Shown in pieces: positions 1-43,541 of a stretch of DNA of 43,541 nucleotides. The notes under the pieces were generated by a model. The model searched no databases. It saw only the letters and a program-made list of their open reading frames with translations, and was not told the DNA's origin. How positions within the stretch are numbered: position 1 is the stretch's first letter; every line of letters begins with the position of its first letter. A program made the position numbers and the translations under genes. The stretch is from IMG/VR virus record IMGVR_UViG_3300020016_000015, positions 1-43,541 of that record, one strand, 5' to 3'. The DNA comes from a virus. Its lineage: Duplodnaviria > Caudoviricetes.

Positions 1-390
1 TACATCGCGAACGCCAAGGCGAATGGGATAGCCGGGAAGGCGGCGAGGCGATCGAATTGGGACTGGCTCGCGCAGCAGCTGGCCAAGGCTTGCCTCGGCG
101 AGAAGGAGAGCATCGACATCGGTAAGTTCATCGCCGTGCTGGAGGTGAATGGCGTGGACTACTCGAAGTGGACCAACCGAAATAGGGGGTGGGAGGGTAG
201 GTTCCGCATGACGGGGCGGGTTGTGCTGCAGAAGGTGGTGGCGGATCGAGGTTCGCTGCTGCTGCCGGAAGGTGTGGTGGTGGAGGCACCGGAGGAATGG
301 CGCGAGCGGTTCAAGACGAAGAAGGCCGCGCCCAAGGCGGCTGCGGTCGTGGCGGCGGTGAAGGAAGAGGTGGTCGACAGCCAGTTCTAA
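1..390 (+). CDS. C-terminal part of paralog A of the GxxGRxRMT family (N-terminal part at 43260-43541)
   Basis: Frame is open from base 1 (YIANAKANG...WDWLAQQL...GWEGRFRMTGR). It aligns closely with the 2409-2894 protein and continues the ORF at the right end of the window. Confidence 0.85.
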   Translation, partial: YIANAKANGIAGKAARRSNWDWLAQQLAKACLGEKESIDIGKFIAVLEVNGVDYSKWTNRNRGWEGRFRMTGRVVLQKVVADRGSLLLPEGVVVEAPEEWRERFKTKKAAPKAAAVVAAVKEEVVDSQF

Positions 391-407
391 GTCACTGAAA
401 TAAAGAA

Positions 408-439
408 CCGCCCACCCCGGCTTGCGCTGGGGTGGGCGG
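408..439 (-). terminator. Intrinsic terminator between convergent genes
   Basis: Stem CCGCCCACCCCGG / CTGGGGTGGGCGG, followed by TTCTTTATTT on the minus strand. Confidence 0.7.
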
Positions 440-441
440 AA

Positions 442-684
442 CTACATTAAGCTGCGACGGCCGGTGGCTGCTAAGTCGGCCTTGGGGTGGGAACTAGTGC
501 GATTGTCACCCTTATAACGTAGCTCAGCGAATGGCCAGTGGACAAGCCAATCGTCGTCGCGGGTTCCAATCACGTAACCAATAGAATCGATGGGGATGAA
601 GTACTCACCAATACCGCAACGAGAATGGCGAATGGTGCGCACTTCGAGGCAGCCTTTTATAAGGCGGCGGGTGGCTTTATTCAT
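442..684 (-). CDS. Hypothetical early protein
   Basis: Begins MNKATRRLIKG. The start overlaps the stop of 681-890 (ATGA coupling). Confidence 0.55.
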   Translation of the reverse strand: MNKATRRLIKGCLEVRTIRHSRCGIGEYFIPIDSIGYVIGTRDDDWLVHWPFAELRYKGDNRTSSHPKADLAATGRRSLM

Positions 685-890
685 TCGTCGGCCTCCACTT
701 CTGGGCCGGACGGGGGAAGGTCGGCGTCCCGACGCACGAACCAATATTTCCAAGCAACCCCGCCGAGGCAGAAAGAAATAAGGGGCGAGGCCACGAAGAA
801 ATAAAGCGGGCGAGGCCAGCCAGCGAAAGAGGAACAGCACACGGCGCAGCGAAAGCCCTCACGACGAGCCAAGGCGAAAAACGAACGCAT
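681..890 (-). CDS. Hypothetical protein with a hydrophobic C-terminal segment
   Basis: AGGAGA RBS upstream; lies directly downstream of promoter 920-949. Confidence 0.5.
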   Translation of the reverse strand: MRSFFALARREGFRCAVCCSSFAGWPRPLYFFVASPLISFCLGGVAWKYWFVRRDADLPPSGPEVEADE

Positions 891-919
891 GGGGTGGTTC
901 TCCTGTTGATGTTAGACGA

Positions 920-949
920 ATTATAGCACGGGGCGGGGGGTCGTGTCAA
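920..949 (-). promoter_or_regulatory. sigma70 promoter TTGACA-N18-TATAAT with extended -10 TG
   Basis: Perfect consensus boxes. The -35 and spacer are nearly identical to the promoter at 2076-2104. Confidence 0.8.
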
Positions 950-1003
950 GATATAGTTCGCCATTCGCAGTGAAAAGCAGGGCGTCAGCTTGCAGTACCC
1001 ACG

Positions 1004-1169
1004 TATCCTCCGTACCTACCTTACCAAACTTTTTCTCCCCCTCCTCTACACGTGGGGTGGGGGCTGTAGAAAAGGCTTGTACAATGAAACAGTTGTAGCA
1101 GGGGGTGTGTGTGGGGGGGTAGCGTAGAGAGCGCCGCCTGTAGGCTTGGTAAGGTAGGCACGCGGGATA
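1004..1169. repeat. Non-coding region bounded by a 24-bp imperfect inverted repeat, with internal GTAG/CTAC repeats (candidate origin or terminus)
   Basis: 1004-1027 TATCCTCCGTACCTACCTTACCAA matches the reverse complement of 1146-1169 at 21 of 24 positions. Confidence 0.6.
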
Positions 1170-1279
1170 GGCGCGTATCGAGAAGGCGCCTGCGGCTCGC
1201 ATTCGCTGAGTGCGTCGAAGTGGCTCGCCCGACTGCGCCCGAAGCTTTTCGCGATGCTTCATGCTCGCACATACAGAGA

Positions 1280-1308
1280 AGCCCCCGCAGCTTACGCCAC
1301 GGGGGCTG
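1280..1308 (-). terminator. Probable terminator hairpin
   Basis: AGCCCCCG...CGGGGGCT stem just downstream of the 47-aa ORF. Confidence 0.45.
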
Positions 1309-1331
1309 GTTCTATTCGGCGAGTGTGGTGT

Positions 1332-1475
1332 TCAGATGCCCCGTCTTCGGATTTCGATTTCCAGTTCGTGGATTCGCTTCGCGTCTTCCTTGCTGGGGGG
1401 CTGCGAAACCTCTCGCATCAGACGCGCCCATTCGACGTCGATTTCTTCTTTGGACATCTTCCGTGGATTCTGCAT
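1332..1475 (-). CDS. Small 47-aa helical protein, below the ORF-track cutoff
   Basis: MQNPRKMSKEEIDVEWARLMREVSQPPSKEDAKRIHELEIEIRRRGI. Has an ACGGAG RBS, its own promoter (1517-1545) and a downstream hairpin. Confidence 0.7.
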   Translation of the reverse strand: MQNPRKMSKEEIDVEWARLMREVSQPPSKEDAKRIHELEIEIRRRGI

Positions 1476-1516
1476 TTCTGTGCTCCGTTTCGTGGGCGGG
1501 ATCGCCCGACATTCCC

Positions 1517-1545
1517 ATCAAACCACACCGCGATCCGCCGCGCAA
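1517..1545 (-). promoter_or_regulatory. Variant sigma70-like promoter TTGCGC-N17-TTTGAT (T at -11)
   Basis: 17-nt spacer and extended -10 TG. Shares TCGCGGTGTGGTTTG with 2978-3006 and precedes an RBS and ORF. Confidence 0.6.
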
Positions 1546-1572
1546 TGCGACAGATCGCCGCATGGGGCTTCG

Positions 1573-1785
1573 CTATTTCGGCGGGAGCAGTTCTTCCACG
1601 TCGAAGTGCTGCTTCAGTAGTTCCACTACTTCTTCCCTGGTTTCGCCTGCCCCGATAGCGTTTCGCGCGGTCACCATAAGAACCTTGTCGTCGCCCCACC
1701 CGAAGGATCGCCATTCGACGGTTTCGTCGGGTAGGAAGGTGAGGAAGATGATCGGCTTCGTGGCGTTGCTGTTCTTCTGTTTCAT
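1573..1785 (-). CDS. Hypothetical early protein
   Basis: 70-aa ORF in the leftward early operon, with a purine-rich RBS region. Confidence 0.65.
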   Translation of the reverse strand: MKQKNSNATKPIIFLTFLPDETVEWRSFGWGDDKVLMVTARNAIGAGETREEVVELLKQHFDVEELLPPK

Positions 1786-1798
1786 TGTCTTCTGTTCC

Positions 1799-2038
1799 TT
1801 ATTCGTTCACAATGTCTTGGCTGCGCGCCCAGATTTCGAAGGCCTCGGTCACTTCGGCCTTGACTTCGGCGGTGTCGCGGTCGAGGGCTTCGATTTCGAG
1901 GATGCGAAGCGTGTCGACGTCGGGCGCCCCGGCTTCTTTCAACGCACGAAGTTCTGCTGCCTTCGCGTCTTCGCCTTGGAGGAAGAAGCCCTCCTCGTCG
2001 GTTTCGTCGCTCTGTGAGAAGAAGTGGATGGTCTTCAT
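1799..2038 (-). CDS. Acidic hypothetical early protein
   Basis: Begins MKTIHFFSQSDE, after the RBS ACGGAGCAGAAC and promoter 2076-2104. Confidence 0.7.
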   Translation of the reverse strand: MKTIHFFSQSDETDEEGFFLQGEDAKAAELRALKEAGAPDVDTLRILEIEALDRDTAEVKAEVTEAFEIWARSQDIVNE

Positions 2039-2075
2039 GTTCTGCTCCGTTTCGGGGGTTGGACCCCACGCCGCG

Positions 2076-2104
2076 ATTGTAGCACGGCGCGGGGGTCGTG
2101 TCAA
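2076..2104 (-). promoter_or_regulatory. sigma70 promoter TTGACA-N17-TACAAT with extended -10
   Basis: Consensus boxes and spacing. Confidence 0.8.
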
Positions 2105-2115
2105 GAGGTCTTCGC

Positions 2116-2346
2116 TCAGACTTCGTTGCAGTGGAGAACGTAGCAATCGTCGAACTGGAGACGCTCGCCTTCGTCTGTGTAGCCGTGCTTCCGCGCTAGC
2201 TCGACCATTTCGTTCTGTTCCTTCTCGAAGAGTTCGCGAACGCTGGCTTCTGCTATTTCGCGGGTGGTGGCGACGGCCAAGAGGCCGAGCCCATCTTCCA
2301 CCAGCAGGTGGTGGTCTTCTTTCGGGATTGCGTAGGCGACGAACAT
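2116..2346 (-). CDS. Hypothetical early protein
   Basis: Begins MFVAYAIPKEDHH with an AAAGG RBS. It is the protein-like C-terminal part of the 317-aa track ORF. Confidence 0.65.
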   Translation of the reverse strand: MFVAYAIPKEDHHLLVEDGLGLLAVATTREIAEASVRELFEKEQNEMVELARKHGYTDEGERLQFDDCYVLHCNEV

Positions 2347-2408
2347 TGGGAAACCTTTCGGGGTTGGTGGTGGTGGAGTGGGGGTGGCTCGCGCCACCCC
2401 CGGCCTTC

Positions 2409-2894
2409 TCAGTGCTGGTGCTTCGCCACCCACTCGGCGGGGGCTTCGAGGGTCTCGCCGTCCGGGAGGGAGAGCGTCCCGGCCTCGGCCACGACCCGCT
2501 GGAGGGCGAGGCGCCCGGTCATCCGAAGCCGCCCCTCCCAGCCCTTGCTCCGGTTCTGCCACCGGCTGTGGTCGACCCCATTCGCCTCGAGGATCGCGAG
2601 GAACCGGTCGATGTCGATCCGGTCCTTCTCGCCAAGGCACTCGCCCGCGAGGGTCTGCGCCAGCCAATCCCACGAGGAGCGCTGCGCCGCCTTGCGTGCG
2701 AGGCCTGCGTCCTTCGCCCGGTGCGCGTACCGGTCCTTGTAGGCGACGGCCACCACGCTCCGGGCCTTCGCGTTGTCCGCTGCGACTTCGGGATCGATCG
2801 CGACGGTCTGGGCTTCGATCGCCTCGCCAAGGGAGAGGGCGAGGGGGGCTTCCGCCTCGGGGGCGGGGGTGGTGTCGGGCTTCTTGCGTGCCAT
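2409..2894 (-). CDS. Paralog B of the GxxGRxRMT family
   Basis: MARKKPDTT...WDWLAQTLAGECLGEKDRIDI...GWEGRLRMTGR. Strong similarity to paralog A. Confidence 0.85.
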   Translation of the reverse strand: MARKKPDTTPAPEAEAPLALSLGEAIEAQTVAIDPEVAADNAKARSVVAVAYKDRYAHRAKDAGLARKAAQRSSWDWLAQTLAGECLGEKDRIDIDRFLAILEANGVDHSRWQNRSKGWEGRLRMTGRLALQRVVAEAGTLSLPDGETLEAPAEWVAKHQH

Positions 2895-2977
2895 CGGTCT
2901 GCTCTCTGGGCGGGCTGGGGCCTCGGGCCGGGGGCCTCGGGGGCGGGGAGGGGGCCGCCGCCCCGCCTCGCACCCAC

Positions 2978-3006
2978 ACCAAACCACACCGCGAGCCCGC
3001 GCGCAA
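2978..3006 (-). promoter_or_regulatory. A-free variant sigma70-like promoter TTGCGC-N17-TTTGGT
   Basis: Same architecture as 1517-1545. The minus strand has no A from 3014 to 2969. Lies upstream of paralog B. Confidence 0.55.
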
Positions 3007-3064
3007 GCGCCGCGTGCGCATGGCTGCCATGCGTCCTGCGCATGGCGATTGGCACGCTTTGTGC

Positions 3065-3141
3065 TGCAAAGTGCGGCCAAGTTGTTGGCCGAAGCTTTTG
3101 CAACTCCCCCAACCCCGCTACGATCTTTGATCGTAGCGGGG
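3065..3141. repeat. Tandem hairpins in the divergence region
   Basis: Perfect 13-bp inverted repeat CCCCGCTACGATC-ttt-GATCGTAGCGGGG (3113-3141), plus the TGCAAA..CGGCCAA/TTGGCCG..TTTGCA stem (3065-3102). Confidence 0.7.
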
Positions 3142-3227
3142 CGGGACCCGTCTCGAATTGCGACGTATTACACTTTGCGTATCCTGGTATCATAAGTCAA
3201 TGTGCGTCGAACGCCTCAGAATATCCT

Positions 3228-3262
3228 CCCTACTTGACGCGCGCCGTACCATGTGCTAAGCT
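3228..3262 (+). promoter_or_regulatory. Late-module promoter CCCTAC-TTGACG-N17-TAAGCT
   Basis: sigma70 boxes with TG extension. The CCCTAC prefix is shared with 4062 and 13592. Confidence 0.7.
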
Positions 3263-3287
3263 CAACGCGCCACATATGGAGGAACTC

Positions 3288-3866
3288 ATGCCCCAACCCA
3301 ACACCACGATGGACCCTGGAGAACTCACCCCCGGTCAATCCGGCTGGCTTCCGCTTGACGCCGCTGGTTATCCTTCCGGACCGGCCACCTTGAATCCGCC
3401 TCCGGGTCCCGGCGCATTGGCGTGCAGCGTAATGTGTGACGCGAATGGGGTTCTAGTTTCAACGACCGGCGCCGAACTGGTCCCGCCCCTGAATTCCAAC
3501 GTCGACAGACGTTACCCCAATGACCCCGCGAACCCGTCTCCCCCTGCTATTATTTCACTGGAGCCGAACTCGGCCGGGATTCTCGATCCCGATTTCACCT
3601 TGGCGGTAGTGGGTTCTGTTGGTGGAACGCCATTCACGGCGGCGTCGGTTATCGTATTCAACGGTGGGGACGAAGTGACCACATTCGTGAGCCCGACCGA
3701 ACTCACCACACTGGTGAAGCCGTCCCTCGTAAGCCAAGCCATCGACGTGCCAGTGAAAGTCAGAGACGCCTACGGCGAATCGAACGAGCTGGTTTTCAGT
3801 TTCACTGAGGCTCCGGCCGCGATGTACGAAGGCGGGCGTAAGCGGGACGAGCGTAACCGCCGCTGA
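3288..3866 (+). CDS. IPT/TIG (Ig-like) domain protein, probably virion-associated
   Basis: GGAGG RBS. C-terminal PAIISLEP...FTAASVIVFNG...TTFVSPTELT...VPVKVR...SNELVFSF is typical of IPT/TIG. Confidence 0.7.
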   Translation: MPQPNTTMDPGELTPGQSGWLPLDAAGYPSGPATLNPPPGPGALACSVMCDANGVLVSTTGAELVPPLNSNVDRRYPNDPANPSPPAIISLEPNSAGILDPDFTLAVVGSVGGTPFTAASVIVFNGGDEVTTFVSPTELTTLVKPSLVSQAIDVPVKVRDAYGESNELVFSFTEAPAAMYEGGRKRDERNRR

Positions 3867-3875
3867 ATAGATAGC

Positions 3876-4052
3876 GTGAGCTACACTAGAAGCCGCTTCA
3901 TGTCTCGCGACCGGATGCGCGGATGGCAGTTGTCTATCCGAGACCCCGGTCGCGCCAAGAAGATAAAGTCCATCCTTAAAGAGGGTGGCTACGACGGAGT
4001 TCGCGCAGCAGAAGCTGAATTGATGCGACGAGAGAAGCGAAAACGTCGTTAA
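3876..4052 (+). CDS. Small basic hypothetical protein (58 aa)
   Basis: Open frame filling the gap between genes (SYTRSRFMSRDRMRGWQLSIRD...). Start uncertain. Confidence 0.4.
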   Translation: MSYTRSRFMSRDRMRGWQLSIRDPGRAKKIKSILKEGGYDGVRAAEAELMRREKRKRR

Positions 4053-4061
4053 TATGTTCGC

Positions 4062-4096
4062 CCCTACTTGACAGGGGCCGCAGCCCATGCTATGAT
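4062..4096 (+). promoter_or_regulatory. Late-module promoter CCCTAC-TTGACA-N17-TATGAT
   Basis: Near-consensus boxes with TG extension. Confidence 0.8.
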
Positions 4097-4152
4097 TGCG
4101 TCACTGTACGTGGCGAATGTATCATTATACCTCTCAACACAGGGAGTTCCCC

Positions 4153-4716
4153 ATGGCCGATACGAAACCCCCCGCACCCGCAACTCAGCCGAAGCCCGCC
4201 GAGAGCGAGGCGGAACGCGTCAAGCGCCAGCACGAAGAAGAAGCTGCTCGTCGGCAGCGCGACAAGGAGAAAGAGGGCAAGCACCAAGCAGGCCCGAAGA
4301 CCAGTTCACTCGCCTATTCGCCTGGCGCTCGCACCGGAGAACGCGTCCCTCTCGGCGACGTTCGCGGCGACACCTTCCTGTCCGACGACGAAATCTCCTC
4401 GCTGGCCGGAGACATCCAGGCGGGCGAAGTCGGCTTCGTGAAGCTCGACGAGGAAGGCACGCCGACCGGGGCGGTTCTCCGCGAGATGCCTCTCGACCCG
4501 GATGGCAGTTACGCACGCGTTATCGGCTCGCCTCAGAGGAAATACGACGAAATCGTCACCCCGTCCGGCGCACCGGTTACTCGTTTCATGAACCCGGAGC
4601 CCACTCTGTGGGACGCCGGAATGCTCGCGCGGAATCCGATCACTCCGGAGATGCTCGAGAACAAATACAACACGCCGCTCGGCGCGCCGGTCGTGAACCA
4701 GCCCGTCGCCACGTAA
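4153..4716 (+). CDS. Hypothetical protein
   Basis: AGGGAG RBS, begins MADTKPP. Shares a short motif with the N-terminus of 3288-3866. Confidence 0.75.
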   Translation: MADTKPPAPATQPKPAESEAERVKRQHEEEAARRQRDKEKEGKHQAGPKTSSLAYSPGARTGERVPLGDVRGDTFLSDDEISSLAGDIQAGEVGFVKLDEEGTPTGAVLREMPLDPDGSYARVIGSPQRKYDEIVTPSGAPVTRFMNPEPTLWDAGMLARNPITPEMLENKYNTPLGAPVVNQPVAT

Positions 4717-4815
4717 ATTAGCGTCCGTCCACCGCCCCCCAAGCCAACGGACGTTAAGGGTCCTCGGCGTTTCTCCCCAGTTACGCCGGGGACTTTCCCC
4801 ATTCGGTGAGCGCTT

Positions 4816-5304
4816 ATGGACGATGAAAACATCCCGTCCGACTTAGTAGCCCTCCCGACTATGCCTTACAACGAGCGGCCAGCAGAACTGCCCCTGGACG
4901 TGGAAGAATGCCGCACCGCCCTTTGGATGGCGTCTGGCAACACCACGAAGGCGGCGGAACTCCTTAAGACCACATCCATTCGGTTACGCGCTTTCATCAG
5001 AAAGTCCGCTTATCTCACTGCAGAAATGCAGGAAGCGGCCGACCGTATGGTCGATCTGGCGGAAGCAAATGTCCTCGACGCTCTGAACGACGCAGAAGAC
5101 GCTTCGCGGCGCGACACGATGAGTAGATTTGTTCTCACCAATATCGGAAAGACGAGGGGGTGGGGCACCGGTAATTCGCCGAACGTAAACGTGAAGAACT
5201 CGGCGGGTGGGACCATTATTGTCCAATGGGGTGATGGTCAGCAATTCAGTAACGAGAAGACCATTGACGGAGAGGTAATAGACAATGAGTCAAGCGCAGC
5301 CTGA
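4816..5304 (+). CDS. terS: Terminase small subunit (HTH-containing)
   Basis: N-terminal HTH (ALWMASGNTTKAAELL), helical VDLAE..L and FVL...GKTRGW segments, upstream of TerL. Confidence 0.65.
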   Translation: MDDENIPSDLVALPTMPYNERPAELPLDVEECRTALWMASGNTTKAAELLKTTSIRLRAFIRKSAYLTAEMQEAADRMVDLAEANVLDALNDAEDASRRDTMSRFVLTNIGKTRGWGTGNSPNVNVKNSAGGTIIVQWGDGQQFSNEKTIDGEVIDNESSAA

Positions 5305-5518
5305 CGGTTACAGCTTGGGGGCACAACGGGTCCGCGAGTCGTTCAATCCGTCCAAAGACAGCGAAGTCGATTATGCGAAGCGGCACACCGCCGACCTGAT
5401 CGACTTCTGCGACAAGCACAAGCATCTTGACCCGCGCCTCGCGGCGCTCGCGATGACCGCTTACGAGGAAGCGGCGATGTGGGCGGTGAAGCTGGTTACG
5501 ACGCAGGTGCCGAAATGA
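5285..5518 (+). CDS. Acb2/Tad1-like helical hairpin protein (putative immune-signal sponge)
   Basis: LGAQRVRESFNPS...RLAALAMTAYEEAAMWAVK resembles the R..A.A.T..EEA.MW motif of Tad1/Acb2-fold proteins. Confidence 0.55.
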   Translation: MSQAQPDGYSLGAQRVRESFNPSKDSEVDYAKRHTADLIDFCDKHKHLDPRLAALAMTAYEEAAMWAVKLVTTQVPK

Positions 5519-5748
5519 ACCGGGGAACCATCGGCTGGGCTATCGATCAGATGCGGGATGGCGAGAAGGTCCAGCGCATCGGTTGGAACGGCAAGAACAT
5601 GTACATTGCCATCCAAAACCCCGATCGTAACTCCAAGATGACGCTCCCTTACGTCTACATGTTCACGGCGCAGGGGGACTTGATTCCGTGGTTGTGCTCG
5701 CAGGCCGATCTTCTCGCCAGAGACTGGCAAGTAGTGATCGAAACGTGA
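5515..5748 (+). CDS. DUF2829 / Tad2-like anti-defence protein
   Basis: AI..M..G.KV.R.GWNGK.M...PY....PW..SQ.D.LA.DW is the DUF2829 signature. Confidence 0.85.
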   Translation: MNRGTIGWAIDQMRDGEKVQRIGWNGKNMYIAIQNPDRNSKMTLPYVYMFTAQGDLIPWLCSQADLLARDWQVVIET

Positions 5749-7082
5749 ACCAGGAATTATTCAACAAGGAAGCGCCCCCTCGGATCACGATTCCTTATGT
5801 TCCGAGGGTGCACTTTCGGCCACTCCACTCTTCCATAAAGCGCTGGATATTCTTGGTAGCCCATCGGCGCGCGGGAAAGACAGTCGCGCTATGTAATCAG
5901 GTGGTCCGGAAAGCTTTGGAAAATCCAAGAACATTTCCCCCACCCCGTTATGGATATATCGGACCATCCTTCGCGCAGGCGAAAGACCTCGTTTGGGGTT
6001 ACTACAAGTATTACACGGGCGTATTGCCCAACGTGAAGGTTGTTGAGGGCGACTTGCAGATCGTCCTGCCCAACGGAGCCATGGTCAATCTTTACGGAGG
6101 CGCCGCAGCTTATGAACGTATGCGCGGGCTATATTTCGACGGGGTGGTTGCTGATGAGTACCCTCTACTTAATCCTAGCATGCTTGGTTCTGTTATTCGT
6201 CCTTGCCTCGCGGATTATCGCGGTTGGGCGGTTATATCAGGAACTTCTGCAGGAGATGACCACTTCCACGAACTTAAGAAGAGGGCTGAAAGAGAGCCCG
6301 AAGAGTGGGAACTGTACGATATACCGGTAACGGAAACCGACGCTCTGGACCCGGATGAAGTCCAGGCGATGCGGAAGGATATGACGCCCGACGAGTTCGC
6401 ACGCGAAATGATGTGCAGCTTCGAGGCGCCCATCGAGGGCAGCTATTACGGCGACGTCATGAACGAAATTTCCCTCGCGGGGCAGATCACGGGAGTTCCT
6501 TATGACCCCAATTCGCTGGTCTTCACGAGTTGGGACTTGGGTATCGACGACGAGATGGTTATTTGGTACATGCAGCGTTGCGGTCGCGAACTTCATACTA
6601 TCGATTTTACTCAGGGGTCTGGTAAGGGTCTTGAACACTACGTCGGAGAAATTAAGTCTAAGCCGTATGCTTATGGCTGCCATGTTCTGCCGCACGATAT
6701 TAAGGCTCGCGAGTTGGGAACCGGGGTGTCGCGAAAAGAAGTCCTCGACTCAATGCTACCCAACACTTTCGTTTGCCCATTACACCGAGTTGAAGACGGC
6801 ATTTCAGCGACGCGTGCGCTAATCCGTCAGATGTGGATCGACAAGACGAAGTGCGCGGCGGGGATCACCGCGTTGCGCGCTTACAGTAAGGGCAAGAATG
6901 GTAAACCCATGCACAATTGGGCGAGCCACGCGGCAGACAGCATGCGAACCGGCGCTGTCGCTATCAACATGATTTCGCCTATGATCGGCGGTTCGAACGT
7001 GATTGGTATCGGTTCGGGAGCGCTTCGGAGAAATCTGAAGCGGCTAGGCAGCGTCCAAAGCAACTCCGGGAGATTTCGATGA
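5745..7082 (+). CDS. terL: Terminase large subunit
   Basis: Walker A HRRAGKT, Walker B VVADE, nuclease motifs WDLG and HAADS. Confidence 0.95.
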   Translation: MNQELFNKEAPPRITIPYVPRVHFRPLHSSIKRWIFLVAHRRAGKTVALCNQVVRKALENPRTFPPPRYGYIGPSFAQAKDLVWGYYKYYTGVLPNVKVVEGDLQIVLPNGAMVNLYGGAAAYERMRGLYFDGVVADEYPLLNPSMLGSVIRPCLADYRGWAVISGTSAGDDHFHELKKRAEREPEEWELYDIPVTETDALDPDEVQAMRKDMTPDEFAREMMCSFEAPIEGSYYGDVMNEISLAGQITGVPYDPNSLVFTSWDLGIDDEMVIWYMQRCGRELHTIDFTQGSGKGLEHYVGEIKSKPYAYGCHVLPHDIKARELGTGVSRKEVLDSMLPNTFVCPLHRVEDGISATRALIRQMWIDKTKCAAGITALRAYSKGKNGKPMHNWASHAADSMRTGAVAINMISPMIGGSNVIGIGSGALRRNLKRLGSVQSNSGRFR

Positions 7083-9262
7083 ACGTCATGACACCCATCC
7101 AAGGCAGCCCCGTCGGCGAAATGGAGCAGATGGAGCGACTGTTTGACAACGGGGTCATCGGTCAACTGGATGTTCAACATCCGAGCAATCCCGGCGACGA
7201 TCCAGACGCGTCGGTGTACGAATACACCGTTCGCGGGATGATCGACGACGCCAAGTCGTTCGATGAGGGTACTCTTGCCCCCGAGCGCGACGAGAATTTG
7301 CATTTCTTCTATGGTGAGACGCCCGCTTCGGAGGGCGAAGGCAAGTCCACGGCGGTGTCTACCGATTTCCGCGACACCGTGATGGCCATTCTGCCCTCCC
7401 TCATGCGCATTTTCACCTCCGACGAACGGGTTTGCACTTGCGCGCCGAATTACAAGGGCCAGGAGGAAATGGCCAAGCAGTGCTCCGAGTATCTGAACTA
7501 TGTGCTTATGGAGGATAACCCCGGCTTTTTGATCCTCCACGATATCATCAAGGATGCTCTGCGCTGCAAGACGGGCGTTACGCGTTGGTGGACCGAAACC
7601 GTGGACGATGTGACGGAGCAAGAATACCACAATATCACCTCCGAGCAATTTCAGTACCTTCTCAGCGAAAATCCGTCGGTCCAGGTGGTTCACGCGGAAC
7701 CCGATCCGCAGCAACCGGGTGTCGCAGCGGTTCTCCGGCTGCGTTTCGTCAAGTCGAAGCCCGTCATCAAGGTTATGTCGGTGCCTCTCGATGAGTTCCG
7801 CATCTCTCGGAAGGCCAAAGACGTCGAGAACAGCCCATTGATTGGCCACGATCAGGTCATAAACGTGTCAGAACTGGTCAAGCAGGGATACCAGTTGGAT
7901 GACTTGGCCGAGTACATGAACCAGTCCGCCGATGATTTTTCTACCGACCGCTTGTTCAGAAATAGCGGTTATGACGAGGGGGACTTGACCGATGCTTGGG
8001 ACGTTCGGTATGGCTGTTATTTCATTCGCATTGATAAGGATGGGGACGGCATCGCTGAGTTGCGCGAAATTCATACCATTGGTGATAATCATGTTATTCT
8101 TTACGATGAGGTCGTCCAACACGCCAACTTTGCCGTTTGGAGTCCTGATCCTGAGCCTCATACTCTGGTTGGCGATACCCCTGCCGACCTAGTGAAGGAT
8201 ATCCAAGTCATCAAGACCAATATGCTCCGCGGTTCGCTCGACTCGCTTGCCCAATCAATCTGGCCGCGAACCGTGTTTAACCAAACGACTACCAACACCG
8301 ACGACGTTCTGAACGACGAAATCGGTGCCCCCATTCGTACTACCGGCGACCCCCAATCGTCGGTGATGTCGCTTGCCCACCAGTTCGTCGGCGAGCCTGT
8401 GTTCAGCATGTTCAAGGTGATGGAGGGGCTCCGCCAATCAAGGACTGGCATTTCCGATGCATCGAAGGGCGTTGATCCTCGGGCTCTGCAGTCTACTAAC
8501 GTTACTGGCATTGACGCAATTGTTCAGGGTGCTCAAGAACGGATCGAACTATGTGCTCGCATTCTAGCCGAAACCGGCTTGAAACAGCTTTTCAGGGGTC
8601 TGCTGCGCGAAATTGTGTCGAACCCCAACCAGCAACGCACGGTTCAGCTTCGCGGGAAGTGGACGGACGTCAACCCCTCCACTTACGATCCGACCATGCG
8701 TATTTCGGTCAATCCGACGCTCGGACGCGGTTCCGACATGACGCGGCTTATGGCGTTGCAAGACGTCAAGGCCACCCAGACGGCTATCATGACCCAATTC
8801 GGTGTCGAAAATCCGCTCTGCGGCGTCCAGGAGTTTCGTAACACTATCGCGGATATGCTCGCCATCGCGAACGTGAAGAACGTCGGGCGGTACTTCCGTG
8901 AAATTACCGAAGAGCAGGTGAAGAAAATCGCGGAGACGCCGAAGGAGCCGGATGCGGCGACGCTTCTCGCTCAGAGCGAGATGGAGAAGAACCGGGTCAA
9001 GATGGCGACCGAAATCTCCAAGTCGAACTTCCAGGATCGGAAGCTCCGGGTGGACGACGATTTCCGCCGCGACGATATGATCGTAAAGGGACTTCTCGAC
9101 GCCGCCAAGATCGAAGCACAGTTCCAGGTGGACGTGAACGAAGCGGAGTTTGAAGCGGAGAACACACCGTCCGACGCGATCAATCCGCCTCCGCCCGAAA
9201 TTCAGCCGCCAGCCGCGTTGCAGCAATTGATGGGGGAACCGAGTGAACCAGCGCCTCAGTGA
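7079..9262 (+). CDS. Portal protein
   Basis: About 727 aa directly after TerL, with portal-like motifs (DALRCKTG, RTGISDASKG, RIELCARILAETG). Confidence 0.9.
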   Translation: MNVMTPIQGSPVGEMEQMERLFDNGVIGQLDVQHPSNPGDDPDASVYEYTVRGMIDDAKSFDEGTLAPERDENLHFFYGETPASEGEGKSTAVSTDFRDTVMAILPSLMRIFTSDERVCTCAPNYKGQEEMAKQCSEYLNYVLMEDNPGFLILHDIIKDALRCKTGVTRWWTETVDDVTEQEYHNITSEQFQYLLSENPSVQVVHAEPDPQQPGVAAVLRLRFVKSKPVIKVMSVPLDEFRISRKAKDVENSPLIGHDQVINVSELVKQGYQLDDLAEYMNQSADDFSTDRLFRNSGYDEGDLTDAWDVRYGCYFIRIDKDGDGIAELREIHTIGDNHVILYDEVVQHANFAVWSPDPEPHTLVGDTPADLVKDIQVIKTNMLRGSLDSLAQSIWPRTVFNQTTTNTDDVLNDEIGAPIRTTGDPQSSVMSLAHQFVGEPVFSMFKVMEGLRQSRTGISDASKGVDPRALQSTNVTGIDAIVQGAQERIELCARILAETGLKQLFRGLLREIVSNPNQQRTVQLRGKWTDVNPSTYDPTMRISVNPTLGRGSDMTRLMALQDVKATQTAIMTQFGVENPLCGVQEFRNTIADMLAIANVKNVGRYFREITEEQVKKIAETPKEPDAATLLAQSEMEKNRVKMATEISKSNFQDRKLRVDDDFRRDDMIVKGLLDAAKIEAQFQVDVNEAEFEAENTPSDAINPPPPEIQPPAALQQLMGEPSEPAPQ

Positions 9263-9497
9263 CTTAGAAATCGACAACAAGGCAGCGGAAGCCGAGTCGA
9301 TTCTTAACCACCCTGTATTCAATGAGGCCATGGAGAAAGTATATTCCAGGGCGCTAGGAACATTACTAAGTGCGGAGGTAGGTAGCTTGACAGCCAGCAC
9401 GGCCCATGCTATCATGATAGCCGTCCGTAATATTAGAAGTGAGCTTACGCAGTTCATCTCCGATAAGAAGATGCGTCAGAAATTCAGTAAGGAGTAA
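9243..9497 (+). CDS. Small conserved protein between portal and scaffold
   Basis: A..IL.HP.F motif and typical position. Confidence 0.7.
   Translation: MNQRLSDLEIDNKAAEAESILNHPVFNEAMEKVYSRALGTLLSAEVGSLTASTAHAIMIAVRNIRSELTQFISDKKMRQKFSKE
9387..9415 (+). promoter_or_regulatory. Internal promoter TTGACA-N17-TATCAT for scaffold and capsid genes
   Basis: Consensus boxes embedded in CDS 9243-9497. Confidence 0.65.
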
Positions 9498-9501
9498 TTC
9501 T

Positions 9502-10665: not shown

Positions 10666-10796
10666 GTTCTACACCGAGGCCCGGATACTCGAAAGAGGGA
10701 CGGGCGTCAGTTACGTAAAAGAGTCAAGTTGACCGATCACTTGTAAGGTCGACGCGATCTTTACGTTCGTGGAACCTCAGAGTAAAACCTCTTAGG
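10666..10796 (+). ncRNA. Putative structured RNA leader of the major capsid gene
   Basis: Nested complementary segments forming a multi-stem junction with a GAAA tetraloop. Confidence 0.45.
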
Positions 10797-10825
10797 CACT
10801 TCAACCACTGAACAGGAGATCGTCC

Positions 10826-11911: not shown

Positions 11912-11918
11912 CGTTGAT

Positions 11919-25161: not shown

Positions 25162-26576
25162 TCCGGGTCCAGCTGAATATTGGTCTTGTAACCCCGGCCA
25201 AAGAATGAGAACACGGCTTGGGCTAGGCTCTCTTTCGCTTGGAGGGCAGCTGTAATTCGCTTGTCCAGCGGTGTTCCCCATAAGTCAATATACAAGCAAC
25301 TTTCAGCTGTCTGGCCGTGACGGTGAATTCGGTCTTCGATTTGGCTCCTATCATCGAGGGAGTAGCTGTTTTCGGCGAACACCATCGTGCTACACTTGTC
25401 GATGATATCTTCCCCGCCAAGCAAGGTGTGTCCGTATTTTCCAGCGCGAATTTGGACCAGAATAACCCGGCAGCTTGGATCACCATTGAACTTATCCTTC
25501 TGAGCCTGAATTTCGTCGGGCTTCATCATTCCCTTGATGAACGCTGGGTTGAATTCCTCCAGCGTCCTGGATAAAATCCCAAGCGTGTAACGGTGGGCGT
25601 AAGGTATCACCACCTTACCCTCGATTTCATCCTCCACGATCTGCTTAACCAACAAGAACCGAGGGTTCTCATGGGGGTGGACTAATTCCTCCACCGACTC
25701 GTCTTCCTTGATAATGAACCCGGACTGAATTTGGGCCAGTTTTATGTATTTCGTAATGAAAGCGTCCACAGTCACGTTTTCGGTGGCGCTAAGCCACACG
25801 ACAAAATCGTTCTCCATGCTCTGGTAAGTTCGCATCAAGTGAGGGCTGAGAACATACTGCCTCGAAGTATATATCTTCGGGGGCAGGTCGGTCCAGTCTT
25901 TCTTAGAGGCTCGGAAGATGAACCGCTCGATAGTGTCGGCCAGCAGTTCTTCGTTCTGCGATCCGATCACCTTCTTGCCCTTGAAACCACCCATCCGGCA
26001 GAACGTTGTTTTAAACGGCCAGAACTTGCTGGTAACGGCGCCGACTATTCGCATCTGCGCCCACAAGTCGTGAGGTCCCTGCGTTACGGGCTTGCCGGAC
26101 AGGAGCCTCCGATATCTGAACACGGCGGCGATTTTCATCGCGGCCTTGGTCTGCAGACTGTCGTGTGTTTTCACCTGCACCGATTCGTCCAGCACCAACA
26201 TCGCGTTCCGCGCGTGTACGAACTGGGTTATGTACCCTTGGACGGCTTCCTTGCGGATTGCCTCATAATTGATGATCAGAACCGGCGGTCTGTCGTACTT
26301 CTTATTTGCGAATTTGGCGTTTTCGTAGTCCGCACCGGAATTGAAAACATGGGCGTCCACGTCAATGCCGTGCTTCTTGATTTCGTCCAGCCATCCGGTC
26401 TTGAACGAATTAGGGCACACAACCACGAGCCGGGTGGCGCTCTTGGTCTTCACCATTTCAGTGAATTCGGTCAGGACCGTCAGGGTTTTCCCGAGGCCCA
26501 TTTCCATGTAGTAGGCGAACCCAGGCTTACCACTAGCCGCCTTGAGTGCTTTCTGTTGAACTTTCAGTAACTGCAT
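25158..26576 (-). CDS. SNF2-family helicase
   Basis: MEMGLGKT, VVVCP, INYE, LDES, LSGKP and Q.EDRIHRHGQ motifs. Confidence 0.92.
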   Translation of the reverse strand: MQLLKVQQKALKAASGKPGFAYYMEMGLGKTLTVLTEFTEMVKTKSATRLVVVCPNSFKTGWLDEIKKHGIDVDAHVFNSGADYENAKFANKKYDRPPVLIINYEAIRKEAVQGYITQFVHARNAMLVLDESVQVKTHDSLQTKAAMKIAAVFRYRRLLSGKPVTQGPHDLWAQMRIVGAVTSKFWPFKTTFCRMGGFKGKKVIGSQNEELLADTIERFIFRASKKDWTDLPPKIYTSRQYVLSPHLMRTYQSMENDFVVWLSATENVTVDAFITKYIKLAQIQSGFIIKEDESVEELVHPHENPRFLLVKQIVEDEIEGKVVIPYAHRYTLGILSRTLEEFNPAFIKGMMKPDEIQAQKDKFNGDPSCRVILVQIRAGKYGHTLLGGEDIIDKCSTMVFAENSYSLDDRSQIEDRIHRHGQTAESCLYIDLWGTPLDKRITAALQAKESLAQAVFSFFGRGYKTNIQLDPD

Positions 26577-27117
26577 GTTCCCCTCTTCTGAACGATTCGC
26601 TGAGTGTACGCTCCGTCAAGGCCATCCACTCATTAACTCTCTCGAATATCTTGTAGTCCCATTGAATTCGCTTCCTTACGTAGTTCTGGATAATGAGACG
26701 CATTTCATTCTTGTGGGTCGACACATACCGGTTCCCCATCAAGCACTCCACCGACAAGAAGTGGAACATTTCCATCATGTCGGCCAGCTTTACTATTTCT
26801 CTGTATCTGACATCTGCGTGATCATACCACGCCGAGCCCACCGTGTCAATCTCTATTTCAGCTATGGTGATGTAAGGCTTTGCTGTGGAGGGAATATCCC
26901 CGGTGAGCGATTCCCTGTCGTCATGGTGGAGGGCAGCTTGGGATAACATACATATTTCTGCCAAGCCGTCTATACCGAACCACGGGGCGATCCGGGTACA
27001 TATTCGCTCCACGTTGAAGCAATGCTCCGCCACGGATTGAGTTTGAATAGTAGGAACGATAGCCCACCGCTTAATCGTGCTTAGGCGGGCATCCAGTTCG
27101 TTGAATACCGTCGTCAT
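26533..27117 (-). CDS. datZ: HD-domain dATP triphosphohydrolase (DatZ-like)
   Basis: KRW.IV.T...QSVAEH...ALHHD..E..TGDIPS..K...VKLAD; adjacent to purZ. Confidence 0.82.
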   Translation of the reverse strand: MTTVFNELDARLSTIKRWAIVPTIQTQSVAEHCFNVERICTRIAPWFGIDGLAEICMLSQAALHHDDRESLTGDIPSTAKPYITIAEIEIDTVGSAWYDHADVRYREIVKLADMMEMFHFLSVECLMGNRYVSTHKNEMRLIIQNYVRKRIQWDYKIFERVNEWMALTERTLSESFRRGEHAVTESSTESTQGG

Positions 27118-27406
27118 GTTCTACTCCCTGCATCCGAAGAGCCACATAGGCTAAGAACGAAAAGTTGGCTTGATCCATCAATTCGATGAGTGAGTTCTCG
27201 TTGAACTTATCTTCGCGCAGCTGGTCTTCGAACTCCACGATTTCGGCGCGGAGCAAATCCATAATGCGCGGTAGCGTTTCCATCGTGGGGGTATCTTTGT
27301 GGGAATTCTTATCGAGTTTAGCGATCATCCCGGCGATGAACGGTATAATGTACGGGCGGAATTTTTTCAGCGAGTCTGGCAACGTGACGATTAGGATACT
27401 AGTCAT
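27071..27406 (-). CDS. mazZ: MazG-like nucleotide pyrophosphohydrolase (MazZ-like, putative dGTP to dGMP)
   Basis: All-alpha E-x2-E...E-x2-D motif (AEIVEF...IELMDQANF), located between purZ and datZ. Confidence 0.6.
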   Translation of the reverse strand: MTSILIVTLPDSLKKFRPYIIPFIAGMIAKLDKNSHKDTPTMETLPRIMDLLRAEIVEFEDQLREDKFNENSLIELMDQANFSFLAYVALRMQGVEHDDGIQRTGCPPKHD

Positions 27407-28457
27407 GGCTCCACCAATTCGAACGTTCGATGTCTTCAATCTTTGGGCCGAACCCAACTAGAAGATCAAACTTCTTGCTGAGCACGGCCGACGCTTCGTG
27501 GAGCCCGTCGATGAATTGGATGTGTTCCTCGGGAGTGAAATAGTCCATGTGGCTTGCGAACACGTAATCGGGGTCGTTGGCGACGCAAGCCTCGAGGAAT
27601 TGGGTCATGGAGAAAGTGGCCACGCGACGGACCCTCTTCGTCACCGTGGTTATTTCAGGCTCACGTTTCAGTGCCTCCCATGTGGTTTCCTGCTGATCAA
27701 AATACCAAGTACCACTAGAATGCCCATCCACGTCGCCAACCCGAATGGGGTATGATCGGATGGCCATGTAAGTACGAGCAAGATGCCTAGGAGGAATTCT
27801 AGCATCGGCTAACCCCTGCATTACCGTGCACTCACGGCTTGTTACTTTGGGATAGAAGCGCGAATTGATACCTAAGCTGAAACCCTGGGCCACTTCCATG
27901 AAATAGGCGTGGTGCTCGGGTTCGATTGCGTGATCCATAAGCATCACGTTCTTCGCGACGCGGCCGAGGGATCGGTCAGCGATAGCATTCGGTTCCCTGC
28001 GGATTTTTCGCACCAACGCCGCGCCGGTTCCGCTCCGGGTGCCAGCGACCGCGCCGATTGACCCCTGTTCTTCCTCGCGCTTATCCTCGTCCGTCACGAT
28101 AGCGGCGTTATGGTGCACGAAGATTGGGATATAAGGATACCTCTCGGCTTCCTCTTTCAGTATGTCGCGGTCAATCACCGCCCCGGCGGATAAATACACC
28201 GGGATAGAAAGTCCCAATTTGTGGAGGGACACAGCGAATGTGGGCAGTTGTTTGAGTACAATTTTCTCGTCGCCGAAATAACTGGTGTGTCCGCTATTCG
28301 GTCCCCCGCTGTAAATAGCGCCAGCGAAATTGAAAGCATGTGGGGCAAGATTTTTATACGCTTGCCATGCGAGCCACGCTGAAAGTGCGCCCTTGCCCGT
28401 GGAGCCGAACTGGCCGTCAACGACGCAGTGGACCCCTTTGTTCTGGAACAAGGTCAT
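27399..28457 (-). CDS. purZ: PurZ-like 2-amino-deoxyadenylosuccinate synthetase
   Basis: DGQFGSTGKG (Ser in place of the PurA catalytic Asp), NSGH, E.AQGFSL, YP..TSR, YPIRV, TTVTKR.RR; short 352-aa form. Confidence 0.92.
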   Translation of the reverse strand: MTLFQNKGVHCVVDGQFGSTGKGALSAWLAWQAYKNLAPHAFNFAGAIYSGGPNSGHTSYFGDEKIVLKQLPTFAVSLHKLGLSIPVYLSAGAVIDRDILKEEAERYPYIPIFVHHNAAIVTDEDKREEEQGSIGAVAGTRSGTGAALVRKIRREPNAIADRSLGRVAKNVMLMDHAIEPEHHAYFMEVAQGFSLGINSRFYPKVTSRECTVMQGLADARIPPRHLARTYMAIRSYPIRVGDVDGHSSGTWYFDQQETTWEALKREPEITTVTKRVRRVATFSMTQFLEACVANDPDYVFASHMDYFTPEEHIQFIDGLHEASAVLSKKFDLLVGFGPKIEDIERSNWWSHD

Positions 28458-29964: not shown

Positions 29965-30161
29965 TATTCCTTCTCCTTTAGTATCTTATGGACCCCGAGG
30001 AATTCGGTGGATTCCTTCCTATAGACGTGCACGACACGGGTCCCCATTTGTTGCAACACAACGCCTTCCATTCCCTGCAGCGTCGTATAAGTTCCGACCA
30101 GAACCCCGATGAACCCGTCGTGCTTAGCCTTATACACATCGTGTTCAACCACATTACTCAT
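29964..30161 (-). CDS. Hypothetical protein
   Basis: 65-aa ORF coupled to the polymerase stop. Confidence 0.65.
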   Translation of the reverse strand: MSNVVEHDVYKAKHDGFIGVLVGTYTTLQGMEGVVLQQMGTRVVHVYRKESTEFLGVHKILKEKE

Positions 30162-31947
30162 CGTACTTGTCCAGCTTGCTGCCGTAAGACGCTCGAGCCC
30201 AATCCGGCCCAGACCCCAAACCGAATGGAATAGGGACGGACAGTTTCAGTTCGTCGGCGACGTGTTCAACGATGCCAATTAGCTCGGCTACTTCGTGCCC
30301 CGGATCGCGCTGCCAAAGCAAACTGTCGTGAATGGTGAGCAGCATCTGAACCTTGTCGGGGTACACATCTTCGTACTGGCAAGCCCGGAGCAGGCTTAAT
30401 TTCAGGTGTTCACCGCCCACGTTCTGAATAATGCGCGACACGGCGCGATATGCGAACCGTGGGTTATCACAGTAAGCGCGCCTGCCGAGAATAGTCTTGA
30501 CATAGCCCCGCCGCTTGAATGTCTGTACAGCCAACTGTTGGAACTGACCAATCTTGGGGAACGCGTCGCTAAGGAAGGCGGAGTGTGCCGCGCGTGCTCG
30601 CTCCAACGGCCAACGCATGTGCCCAGACAGGGTGGGCGGGGACATCATAGTTAGCATCCCCATCGACAGTCGCTTTGCTACCTCGCGGTCTAGGTTAAGA
30701 ATTTGCGAGGCTCTATCGTGGATATCCATAGTTCCATTTCGGTATCCTTCTGTGAGCACCGGATCACCCGAATAATGAGTGAATAATCGTGGTTCTTGTT
30801 GCTTTGCATCTGCTTCTTCGAAGACGAATCCTTCATCAGGGACAACAAGCCTTCGCACAACTCTTCCCACTTCGATGTTTCGCTTGGGGAAAGCTTGTAA
30901 GTTAGGTTCGGAACATGAAAATCTAACGCCCGCAACTCCGTAGTCATCCGATTTGGATTGGTTGAGTATAGGATGAACTCGTCCGTTAACGTTGTGAGTA
31001 TCGATGAGCGGCGCGATGAAACTGTCCCGCGCCTTTTCGAGCCGCCGGACCGTGAGGATCGCTTGCCCGATGTCATTTGTTTCCAACCATTTTTCTGTAA
31101 ATGAGAACGCCCCGTTGTCGGTCTTGGCGAAGCGCTCGTCAGTGAAACCGTTAGCCCTAAACAGAGCCTCGACTGATTTCGGTGACCGCGCGTTGAACCC
31201 TGGAACAAATACCTTGCTGGCCTCCTTGATAGCTTCGTCGACGTCGACGACTACCTTCTGTGAGTATTCGGGGTCGATCTTAAGTCCCCGGTTGTGCATC
31301 CGCGCCACATAAGGCAGCAGATCGCACTCAAGCTTCCACGGAGCCCTGATTTCATCCCCGTCCAGAATTCGCTGTTGCTTTGCCCATAGTTCGAGCGTTG
31401 AAATGCCGTCGCCGGTCGCGTAATCGACCACGAGGGGGTGGTCCCCTTCCAGGCGCCAGAAATTCCCCATCTGCTTCTTCTCGGGGAGGCCACCGAACCT
31501 ACGCGCCAATTCGGCGTATAGTTCTGCCCCCTTCTTGGGGGTGACGCCGTGGCGAATACAGCACTCTTCTAGGCTGTACCCCTGTGTTATGTCACTGATG
31601 ATCGCCTCGTTGATCATCGTGTCTTCTAGTGGAGAGCCCAGAACAATCCCATGCCTAAGAGTGAACCTAAGATCAAAGCCCAGATTATGCCCAACAGTCC
31701 GAAAACCGAGTCGACTACGAGCCCTAAAAGCGCCATCAAGTTCGCGTTCGAATTCCTCTGCGTTGGGAACATTGCCCCCTCCTTCATGTCTGAGTGGGAC
31801 GTATATTGAATATTTATCATTCGTGATGACATGGCCGCAAATCCTGTCCTTGATGGTTAGACCGGTGGTTTCGGTGTCGTAGGCGATAGGCCCAGAATTA
31901 CTTTCAACGATGTCGAGCGCCAACTGTGGTTCAATGCATTGTATCAT
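30154..31947 (-). CDS. dpoZ: Family A DNA polymerase with 3'-5' exonuclease (DpoZ-like)
   Basis: DTETTG, HN..FD, YA..D exonuclease motifs; PNLQ; motif A D..QQEPR; motif C HDS; no 5'-3' exonuclease domain; linked to purZ. Confidence 0.8.
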   Translation of the reverse strand: MIQCIEPQLALDIVESNSGPIAYDTETTGLTIKDRICGHVITNDKYSIYVPLRHEGGGNVPNAEEFERELDGAFRARSRLGFRTVGHNLGFDLRFTLRHGIVLGSPLEDTMINEAIISDITQGYSLEECCIRHGVTPKKGAELYAELARRFGGLPEKKQMGNFWRLEGDHPLVVDYATGDGISTLELWAKQQRILDGDEIRAPWKLECDLLPYVARMHNRGLKIDPEYSQKVVVDVDEAIKEASKVFVPGFNARSPKSVEALFRANGFTDERFAKTDNGAFSFTEKWLETNDIGQAILTVRRLEKARDSFIAPLIDTHNVNGRVHPILNQSKSDDYGVAGVRFSCSEPNLQAFPKRNIEVGRVVRRLVVPDEGFVFEEADAKQQEPRLFTHYSGDPVLTEGYRNGTMDIHDRASQILNLDREVAKRLSMGMLTMMSPPTLSGHMRWPLERARAAHSAFLSDAFPKIGQFQQLAVQTFKRRGYVKTILGRRAYCDNPRFAYRAVSRIIQNVGGEHLKLSLLRACQYEDVYPDKVQMLLTIHDSLLWQRDPGHEVAELIGIVEHVADELKLSVPIPFGLGSGPDWARASYGSKLDKYDE

Positions 31948-32111
31948 GATTTGTCTTCCCAAGTAATCTTGTACCCGGCGTCTTTCAACGCTTTAACAAT
32001 GGCTTCAGCTGCCTTCTCTACTTCCCACACCGGAGGGATTTTGAAACCACTACTATATAAATGTGCAAACGTGGGGAGGTTCTCCGCCACTATGTCTTTC
32101 GGTGACTTCAT
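31944..32111 (-). CDS. Small hypothetical protein
   Basis: Begins MKSPKDIVAE; overlaps the polymerase start. Confidence 0.5.
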   Translation of the reverse strand: MKSPKDIVAENLPTFAHLYSSGFKIPPVWEVEKAAEAIVKALKDAGYKITWEDKS

Positions 32112-43178: not shown

Positions 43179-43207
43179 TTGACAGGGGCGGGTTGGTGTG
43201 ATTTAAT
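43179..43207 (+). promoter_or_regulatory. Variant sigma70 promoter TTGACA-N17-TTTAAT (T at -11)
   Basis: Perfect -35, GGTGTG before the -10, upstream of paralog A. Confidence 0.65.
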
Positions 43208-43259: not shown

Positions 43260-43541
43260 ATGGCAAAGGGCAGTAAGAAGGCGAAGAAGCCGACCAAGGC
43301 GGAGGCTGAGCAGATCGAGAAGGATCGGCTTGAGGCGCACGCGAGAGAAGGAATTAATGAAGCGCTCGAGGAAGTGGAGCGCAGTTACGAACCGGTGGTC
43401 GGCCCCAACGTTCAGGTGGGCGAGTTCGTCGACCAGCCCGACCAAGGCGAGCCCACTGAAAATGGTGAGCAGACGGAAGGCCAGCTCGCCGAGGGCGAAA
43501 AGGAGCCTGAAGAGAAGGAAATCGTCTCGGTGGTCGCGCCG
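43260..43541 (+). CDS. N-terminal acidic part of paralog A (runs off the window end)
   Basis: MAKGSKKAKK...EKEIVSVVAP, open for 94 codons to the last base. SVVA matches SVVAVAYKDRY of paralog B. Confidence 0.8.
   Translation, partial: MAKGSKKAKKPTKAEAEQIEKDRLEAHAREGINEALEEVERSYEPVVGPNVQVGEFVDQPDQGEPTENGEQTEGQLAEGEKEPEEKEIVSVVAP

Follow-up and report, generated by a model that had tools for sequence, protein, structure and literature searches.

Thymine at promoter position -11 in a purZ-encoding podophage and in purZ phages of several lineages

Three putative promoters in the soil phage genome studied here (the window, meaning the whole stretch of 43,541 nucleotides) carry T at position -11, and we found that they are T alleles of promoters that have A in most relatives. 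Such T-11 alleles are overrepresented among purZ phages, in several lineages not related to one another, and predominate in some of them. The promoter variant is real, linked to purZ and apparently not previously described. With middling confidence, we favor a reading in which the three sites are -35/extended -10 elements read by the host sigma70, where T-11 would be tolerated as 2,6-diaminopurine (Z), the predicted substitute for A in this phage, would fit the -11 pocket poorly. At issue is the way in which promoters are opened by host RNA polymerase when Z replaces A throughout the DNA.

The window is a complete circular podophage record, with one gene spanning the join (43260 to 390), and encodes terminase, portal, capsid, a family A DNA polymerase, PurZ and a DatZ-like dATPase. 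The genes that bear on Z-DNA are:

27399..28457, minus strand: purZ; Ser replaces the PurA catalytic Asp (GQFGSTGKG)
26533..27117, minus strand: datZ-like dATP triphosphohydrolase, near purZ (phrog_7076, E 3e-19, YfbR-like)
30154..31962, minus strand: DNA polymerase of family A (among NCBIfam models DpoZ fits best, with 238 bits, under the cut-off of 500)

The genome is only predicted to be Z-substituted, since the polymerase and PurZ (best model NF038379 at 207 bits, cut-off 300) lie under their NCBIfam cut-offs and no MazZ was recognized, the ORF at 27071-27457 being without any family match to MazZ/dUTPase or others. The same purZ and datZ cluster is found in the Z-genome phages S-2L, phiVC8, SH-Ab 15497 and Wayne and in Ochrobactrum phage vB_OspP_OH. 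The latter is the closest cultured relative, sharing a paralogue family and a palindrome with the window, and has the closest cultured PurZ (53%), which makes an alphaproteobacterial host likely. No cultured phage matched positions 1-20000 of the window at the DNA level. A PHROG scan of 68 window ORFs revealed no gene for a sigma factor or an RNA polymerase; LuxR/CsgD-type HTH models fit best to the ORF at 34614-34883, which had a PHROG "sigma factor" match, and this stand-alone HTH gene lies directly behind the primase. purZ is present in 9/9 near-complete IMG/VR relatives and in vB_OspP_OH. As no purZ-negative close relative occurred among the relatives sampled, the comparison of purZ-positive and purZ-negative sister clades was made with distant controls.

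Three sites with T at -11 and their orthologues

The sites, their genes and two canonical promoters of the early arm are:

2978..3006, minus strand: putative T-11 promoter TTGCGC-17-(TG)-TTTGGT, the first early-arm promoter; drives gene 2894-2409
1517..1545, minus strand: putative T-11 promoter TTGCGC-17-(TG)-TTTGAT, upstream of a 46-aa ORF
43179..43207, plus strand: putative T-11 promoter TTGACA-17-(TG)-TTTAAT; drives the gene from 43260 to 390 across the join
2076..2104, minus strand: canonical A-11 promoter TTGACA-17-TACAAT, between two T-11 sites
920..949, minus strand: canonical promoter TTGACA-18-TATAAT, early arm
1335..1475, minus strand: 46-aa ORF behind the 1545 promoter
2409..2894, minus strand: 161-aa conserved helical protein, one of four paralogues
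43260..43541, plus strand: 5' part of a 223-aa paralogue, the rest at 1-390 of the circular record

An earlier note on this DNA had described the three TTG-17-TG-TTTnnT elements, and its coordinates and sequences are exact; all three are identical in contigs from other soil runs, so they are not assembly errors. Its count of twelve canonical TAnnnT promoters has to be corrected to 14 (11 with a 17-nt spacer, 3 with 18). The GGTGTG-N that it noted before the -10 box is indeed present at all three sites but also at canonical promoters 13598 and 34388, and TG precedes the -10 at all 14 canonical promoters.

All three sites have the TTG-led -35, 17-nt spacer, T-12 and T-7 of sigma70 promoters, with T in place of A at -11. 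The TTGCGC of sites 1545 and 3006 keeps 3/6 of the -35 consensus, and 43179 has TTGACA. They also show TG at -15/-14, a non-consensus -10 and a recognizable -35, the sequence features of the -35/TGn class described in PMC2613000. In the E. coli sigma70 promoters of this class treated there (gapAP1, Pminor, cspA), the same kind of weak -10 is carried by the -35 and the TG, and cspA (CTTAAT) is likewise non-consensus at -11. What sets the phage sites apart is that they retain T at -12 and -7 and deviate at -11 alone, where the new base is almost always T, followed by another T at -10; moreover, their frequency tracks purZ and they can be the main promoter form of a genome. A matrix of the family promoters with -11 masked gave, at threshold 14, 205 matches in real and 14 in shuffled genomes; it accepts the 43179 site (29.7 bits) and the 3006 site (15.5 bits) but not the 1545 site, which is considered a promoter because of its 77% identity to the 3006 site over 43 nt and the common upstream palindrome.

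Canonical promoters at orthologous positions suggest that the sites are what the earlier note took them for, real promoters. Among 80 metagenome loci upstream of a 2894-type gene, 63 were called by rule and represent 51 distinct promoters, with 40 A, 10 T, 1 C and 0 G at -11; the 17 uncalled loci, read by eye, gave 12 A, 1 T and 4 unreadable cases. For example, locus L813, whose downstream protein is 96% identical, has TTGCGC-17-TATAGT at this position. The purZ-positive records with A are G005, G014, G015, G018, G019, G021 and vB_OspP_OH, those with T are G000, G007 and G016, and G017 has C. The 43179 site has T in 3/10 records, its orthologues being TTTAAT in G007 and G014 and TAnnnT in G005, G015, G016, G017, G018, G021 and G022. 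This toggling between A and T makes the three sites alleles of ordinary promoters, none of them fixed.

The 3006 promoter had also been singled out as entirely A-free. The 46-nt A-free run at 3014-2969 exists, but it is only the third longest on its strand (the others 56 and 53 nt). Local mononucleotide shuffles gave P = 0.001 (2895-3230) and 0.015 (2401-3400), uncorrected for the choice of the spot. The segment from -35 to -7 is A-free in 2/51 distinct orthologous sequences, and canonical spacers are also A-free in 27/168 cases. Lack of A as a selected trait was consequently abandoned, the run being neither conserved nor exceptional genome-wide.

Distribution in phages with and without purZ

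A census of TTGAC[AG]-14-TG-N-TxnnnT in 17 family records, some of them near-duplicates, gave 161 A, 10 T, 4 C and 1 G at -11. The non-A rate (8.5%, 15/176) is below that quoted for E. coli (13%, A-11 occurring in 87% of promoters) and thus unremarkable alone; the T-11 contrast stands only when the reference is phage promoters of equal strength. In nine complete genomes (G020 left out, its 2894-type promoter not being located), the matrix with -11 masked found 116 A and 11 non-A promoters at 18 bits or more, a limit under which sites with a degenerate -35 such as 1545 and 3006 fall; one of the non-A matches lies inside a TGTGC repeat. All non-A matches of G018, G019 and G021 are low-scoring. 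Non-A promoters cluster in the early arm, with 10/11 at most 8 kb from the 2894 gene versus 51/116 canonical ones (P = 0.003), although canonical promoters still outnumber them there by 51:10. TAA at -10 to -8, that is an otherwise perfect -10, accompanies 9/11 non-A but 5/116 A promoters (P = 6e-9); that a T-11 site needs a perfect remainder signals a cost.

Cultured phages were compared by the rule TTGAC-17-TxnnnT with TG. Those with purZ gave 65 A and 8 T, the A-11 counts including 8 for phiVC8, 11 for BUCT555, 7 for ZP6 and 14 for vB_OspP_OH. TTTAAT occurs twice in SH-Ab 15497, both times among tail genes, twice in JeffCo and once in Wayne, whereas the single T-11 match of phiVC8 lies inside a gene. 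No convincing T-11 promoter was found in seven complete purZ genomes (G018, G019, G021, vB_OspP_OH, phiVC8, BUCT555 and ZP6), and TTGAC-17-TG promoters are absent or nearly absent from Ghobes, S-2L, phiM5 and RHph_Y25, which are therefore uninformative here. Eleven purZ-negative phages picked by portal similarity gave 26 A, 2 T and 2 G, none of them TTTAAT. purZ-negative FJK begins with TTGACA-17-TCTAAT, without TG, and purZ-negative G075 has TTGACA-17-TG-TTTGAT. The TG extension of TTGAC-17-TAnnnT is present at 111/120 sites in the family, 65/76 in cultured purZ phages and 26/56 in the purZ-negative portal-similarity phages. The LUZ24-like phages (tf, FJK, UFV-P2, BroderSalsa) resemble the window in a related portal, a similar early/late layout and TTGACA-17-TAnnnT cassettes, but they are without purZ, have TG at about half of the sites, show no TG-TTTAAT, and their spacers exceed the genome in AT content by 16-22 points. 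In 24/25 purZ-type records the spacers have a higher GC content than the genome (window, 0.85 vs 0.55), whereas they are AT-richer in 4/4 LUZ24-like controls; this is possibly a second Z signature, as A-tract shape would be lost.

In IMG/VR, stretches with TTGACA-N13-GTGS- are followed by TATAAT about 13,000 times, by TTTAAT about 230 times and by TGTAAT 98 times. PurZ was searched around 76/122 TTTAAT, 88/136 TATAAT and 40/98 TGTAAT fetched loci, listed contigs under 30 kb being dropped. A Ser-type PurZ is encoded in 10/49 TTTAAT, 2/55 TATAAT and 0/26 TGTAAT records of at least 30 kb (P = 0.012 for each comparison), and in 7/23, 1/21 and 0/9 of those at least 90% complete. A DatZ-like gene lies beside 3/9 PurZ genes of the TTTAAT set with flanks searched (G014 is outside that set). 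A further 27 records, picked by PurZ similarity, hold 100 TTGAC-TG-TnnnAT sites, 11 of them non-A and 9 T[TC]TAAT, and no match to the reversed pattern; the nine sites are spread over 8 records that include two near-duplicate pairs. The 50/53 purZ-negative TATAAT records used as controls hold 433 A and 11 non-A promoters (9 reversed-pattern matches) and no T[TC]TAAT among these 444 strong promoters, although most are AT-rich, which should favor T. The difference (9/100 vs 0/444) has P = 2e-7 by site and 9e-4 by deduplicated record; the records are related, and the controls, picked by their TATAAT match, differ in host and GC. The comparison of purZ-positive with purZ-negative phages suggested in the earlier note thus reveals enrichment of T-11 with purZ, against unmatched and distant controls. 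T-11 appears repeatedly, in podoviruses as well as siphoviruses, whose hosts belong to different phyla.

Three records found through their TTTAAT match, G050, G036 and G045 (L566-L567, L582-L584, L596-L597), are unrelated to the window and use TTGACA-17-TG-TTTAAT for nearly all strong promoters: 6/6 sites in G050, 7/8 in G036 and 7/9 in G045, where 9/9 are non-A. Two of them encode PurZ-type enzymes. purZ was not detected in G045, which is 61% complete; its nearest helicase relative, G243, has purZ but is only 38% identical, which makes it weak evidence. DatZ was not detected in G036 and G050, and no sigma family was recognized among 50 selected ORFs of the three records. A dUTPase/deoxyribosyltransferase and a lyase adjoin purZ in G036; the available part of bioRxiv 10.1101/2025.10.22.683976 ties deoxyribosyltransferase and dUTPase domains to Z phages. 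The TTTAAT variant is not exclusive to Z, as 16/23 near-complete carriers lack purZ, many of their sites looking like real promoters, and bacterial genomes contain about 2,900 stretches with the pattern (a count without a TATAAT denominator). Visual inspection of the bases that follow TTTAAT led us to discard a shifted -10 register (TAATnT behind a longer spacer).

Readings of the T-11 variant

Sigma70 takes up the -11 base in a pocket, and 2,6-diaminopurine at this position reportedly impairs promoter opening. We found no literature source testing 2,6-diaminopurine itself. According to PMC2613000, Pgal was blocked by 2-aminopurine in position -11, whereas an ideal -35/TGn/-10 promoter escaped the block. 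PMC1919498 reports considerable inhibition even at a consensus promoter, an abasic -11 being only slightly worse than A. Sigma-factor sensitivity was named as a probable cause of Z toxicity (PMC8342488). Our literature search, which covered few subscription journals, yielded no account of promoter usage in Z phages: the word "promoter" does not occur in the accessible part of PMC7139368, and the accessible parts of PMC12944874, PMC10786293 and the bioRxiv study above deal with T7-driven expression or biosynthesis.

On the predicted Z-DNA, -11 would be Z or T, never A, and the 2-amino group would lower open-complex formation, judging from the published 2-aminopurine work. The advantage of Z over T would then be smaller than that of A over T in ordinary DNA. 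Z would probably still be the better base as a rule, since about 90% of promoters keep it, and because T would still pair with Z in the template, pocket fit alone would change. All promoters would lean on double-stranded anchors (TTGAC, 17 bp, GTG), and T-11 sites would in addition have an upstream palindrome or else a -10 that is perfect apart from -11 (TTTAAT). Rather than two temporal classes, there would be a single polymerase and a single type of promoter, in which the preference is shifted. A narrowed gap between Z and T is the simplest joint account of the 90% retention, the compensation and the enrichment. If true, base modification reshapes a promoter consensus, giving design rules for gene expression from Z-DNA and a sequence marker for Z genomes. 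The natural A/T allele pairs at one promoter are direct material for in vitro tests.

A rather unlikely alternative takes the sites for ordinary weak -35/TGn promoters in which T-11 tunes expression down or arose by drift, with a partial dependence on an activator acting through the upstream palindrome, and the link with purZ for an effect of host lineage, GC or relatedness. The class is known, with CTTAAT in cspA, TTTAAT also occurs in purZ-negative phages and bacteria, the controls are unmatched, and the palindrome stands beside 7/11 non-A versus 16/40 A orthologues. However, T[TC]TAAT is absent from the 444 strong promoters of mostly AT-rich purZ-negative records, attenuation hardly accounts for G036 and G050, which use the variant wholesale, and both podo- and siphoviruses, with hosts from different phyla, have it.

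A bolder view would have Z-DNA rewriting the sigma70 code: TTGACA-17(GC-rich)-GTG-TTTAAT would have evolved repeatedly in Z-genome phages, giving up the base that is most conserved in bacterial promoters because T outperforms Z in the -11 pocket, and some lineages would have switched fully; we regard it as tentative and doubtful. If T does outperform Z, Z genomes would also be recognizable in metagenomes by TTTAAT cassettes whose spacers are GC-rich. As an explanation of the data, a T-11 superior to Z-11 on Z-DNA, with TTTAAT as the consensus adapted to Z and a switch that has advanced to differing degrees among lineages, appears improbable. It accords with the TTTAAT shares of G050, G036, G045 and G014 (5/14 in the last) and with the lack of a sigma family among the selected ORFs of the first three, but about 90% of purZ-phage promoters keep A, the perfect remainder at T-11 sites signals a cost, and Z-DNA is only predicted in G036 and G050, where no DatZ was detected.

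The earlier note had proposed that T-11 promoters alone are opened by host polymerase on incoming Z-DNA and that TAnnnT promoters need a phage factor, which we now consider very improbable. T-11 does cluster in the early arm and is enriched with purZ, the 3006 promoter is the first after a candidate genome end, and two of the three sites drive paralogues of a conserved protein. As an immediate-early class, however, T-11 is neither obligate nor fixed: the expectation of finding it in every purZ relative fails with A at 40/51 orthologues and with seven complete purZ genomes lacking a convincing case. The SH-Ab 15497 sites lie among tail genes (Wayne also has T-11 promoters; phiVC8 and vB_OspP_OH do not, and S-2L lacks this promoter type), and a canonical promoter stands between two T sites of the window. 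Progeny DNA would be Z too, so Z has to function at the roughly 90% of promoters that have A-11. Finally, it is hardly credible that a terminator-like hairpin or a repeat, and not a promoter, lies at each of the two TTGCGC sites, since the stem at 1558-1530 (12 pairs) followed by GGTGTGGTTT, 15 nt past a gene end, and the low matrix score of 1545 are outweighed by relatives in which the palindrome-TTGCGC-17-TG layout carries TAGACT or TACAAT.

Neighboring elements and the paralogue family

Two further elements lie beside these promoters:

1546..1562, no strand assigned: palindrome TGCGGC-N5-GTCGCA, directly adjoining the -35 of the 1545 promoter; occurs once in the window
3108..3150, minus strand: CGGGTCCC with hairpin and G-run, conserved, between divergent late and early promoters

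The palindrome is likely a regulator site. Six copies stand beside promoters of vB_OspP_OH, and it occurs at 23/51 orthologues of the 3006 promoter; the general form TG(C/T)G(A/G)C-N5-G(T/C)C(G/A)CA abuts the -35 or lies 9-10 nt before it (L014 344, 781, 932, 2969, 4186, 5226). It resembles the RegR/RegA/PrrA/ActR box, with the putative consensus GCGGC-N5-GTCGC, and could tie early genes to the redox state of the host; in the window it abuts a degenerate -35, and its owner could equally be a phage-coded regulator. The available part of PMC4064962 has variable putative boxes only and no RegR consensus.

Besides the window, 10 IMG/VR relatives have the CGGGTCCC element in the corresponding place, and vB_OspP_OH has it once; the hairpin behind it is variable. 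It is a candidate genome end or packaging site; no genome end is visible in contigs from other soil runs.

The four paralogues (2409-2894, 43260-390, 38993-38430 and 34319-33876) each have their own promoter and the motif GRxRMT. The family is kept in most relatives, with three copies in vB_OspP_OH, and is a candidate DNA- or polymerase-binding factor. It had no match in PHROG, NCBIfam, Atlas or PDB Foldseek searches, and its only viral fold matches are the vB_OspP_OH paralogues; the model of the 2409..2894 protein has a pLDDT of 81.

A sigma54-like TGGCAC-N5-(T/G)TGC at 3050-3065 (plus strand) has similar counterparts in the same place in G007, G016 and L011 and is perhaps another operator, L011 having an inverted pair. 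In addition, a 32-nt inverted repeat (996-1027 / 1146-1177, 81%) surrounds a 118-nt non-coding core in the early arm and is a possible replication origin.
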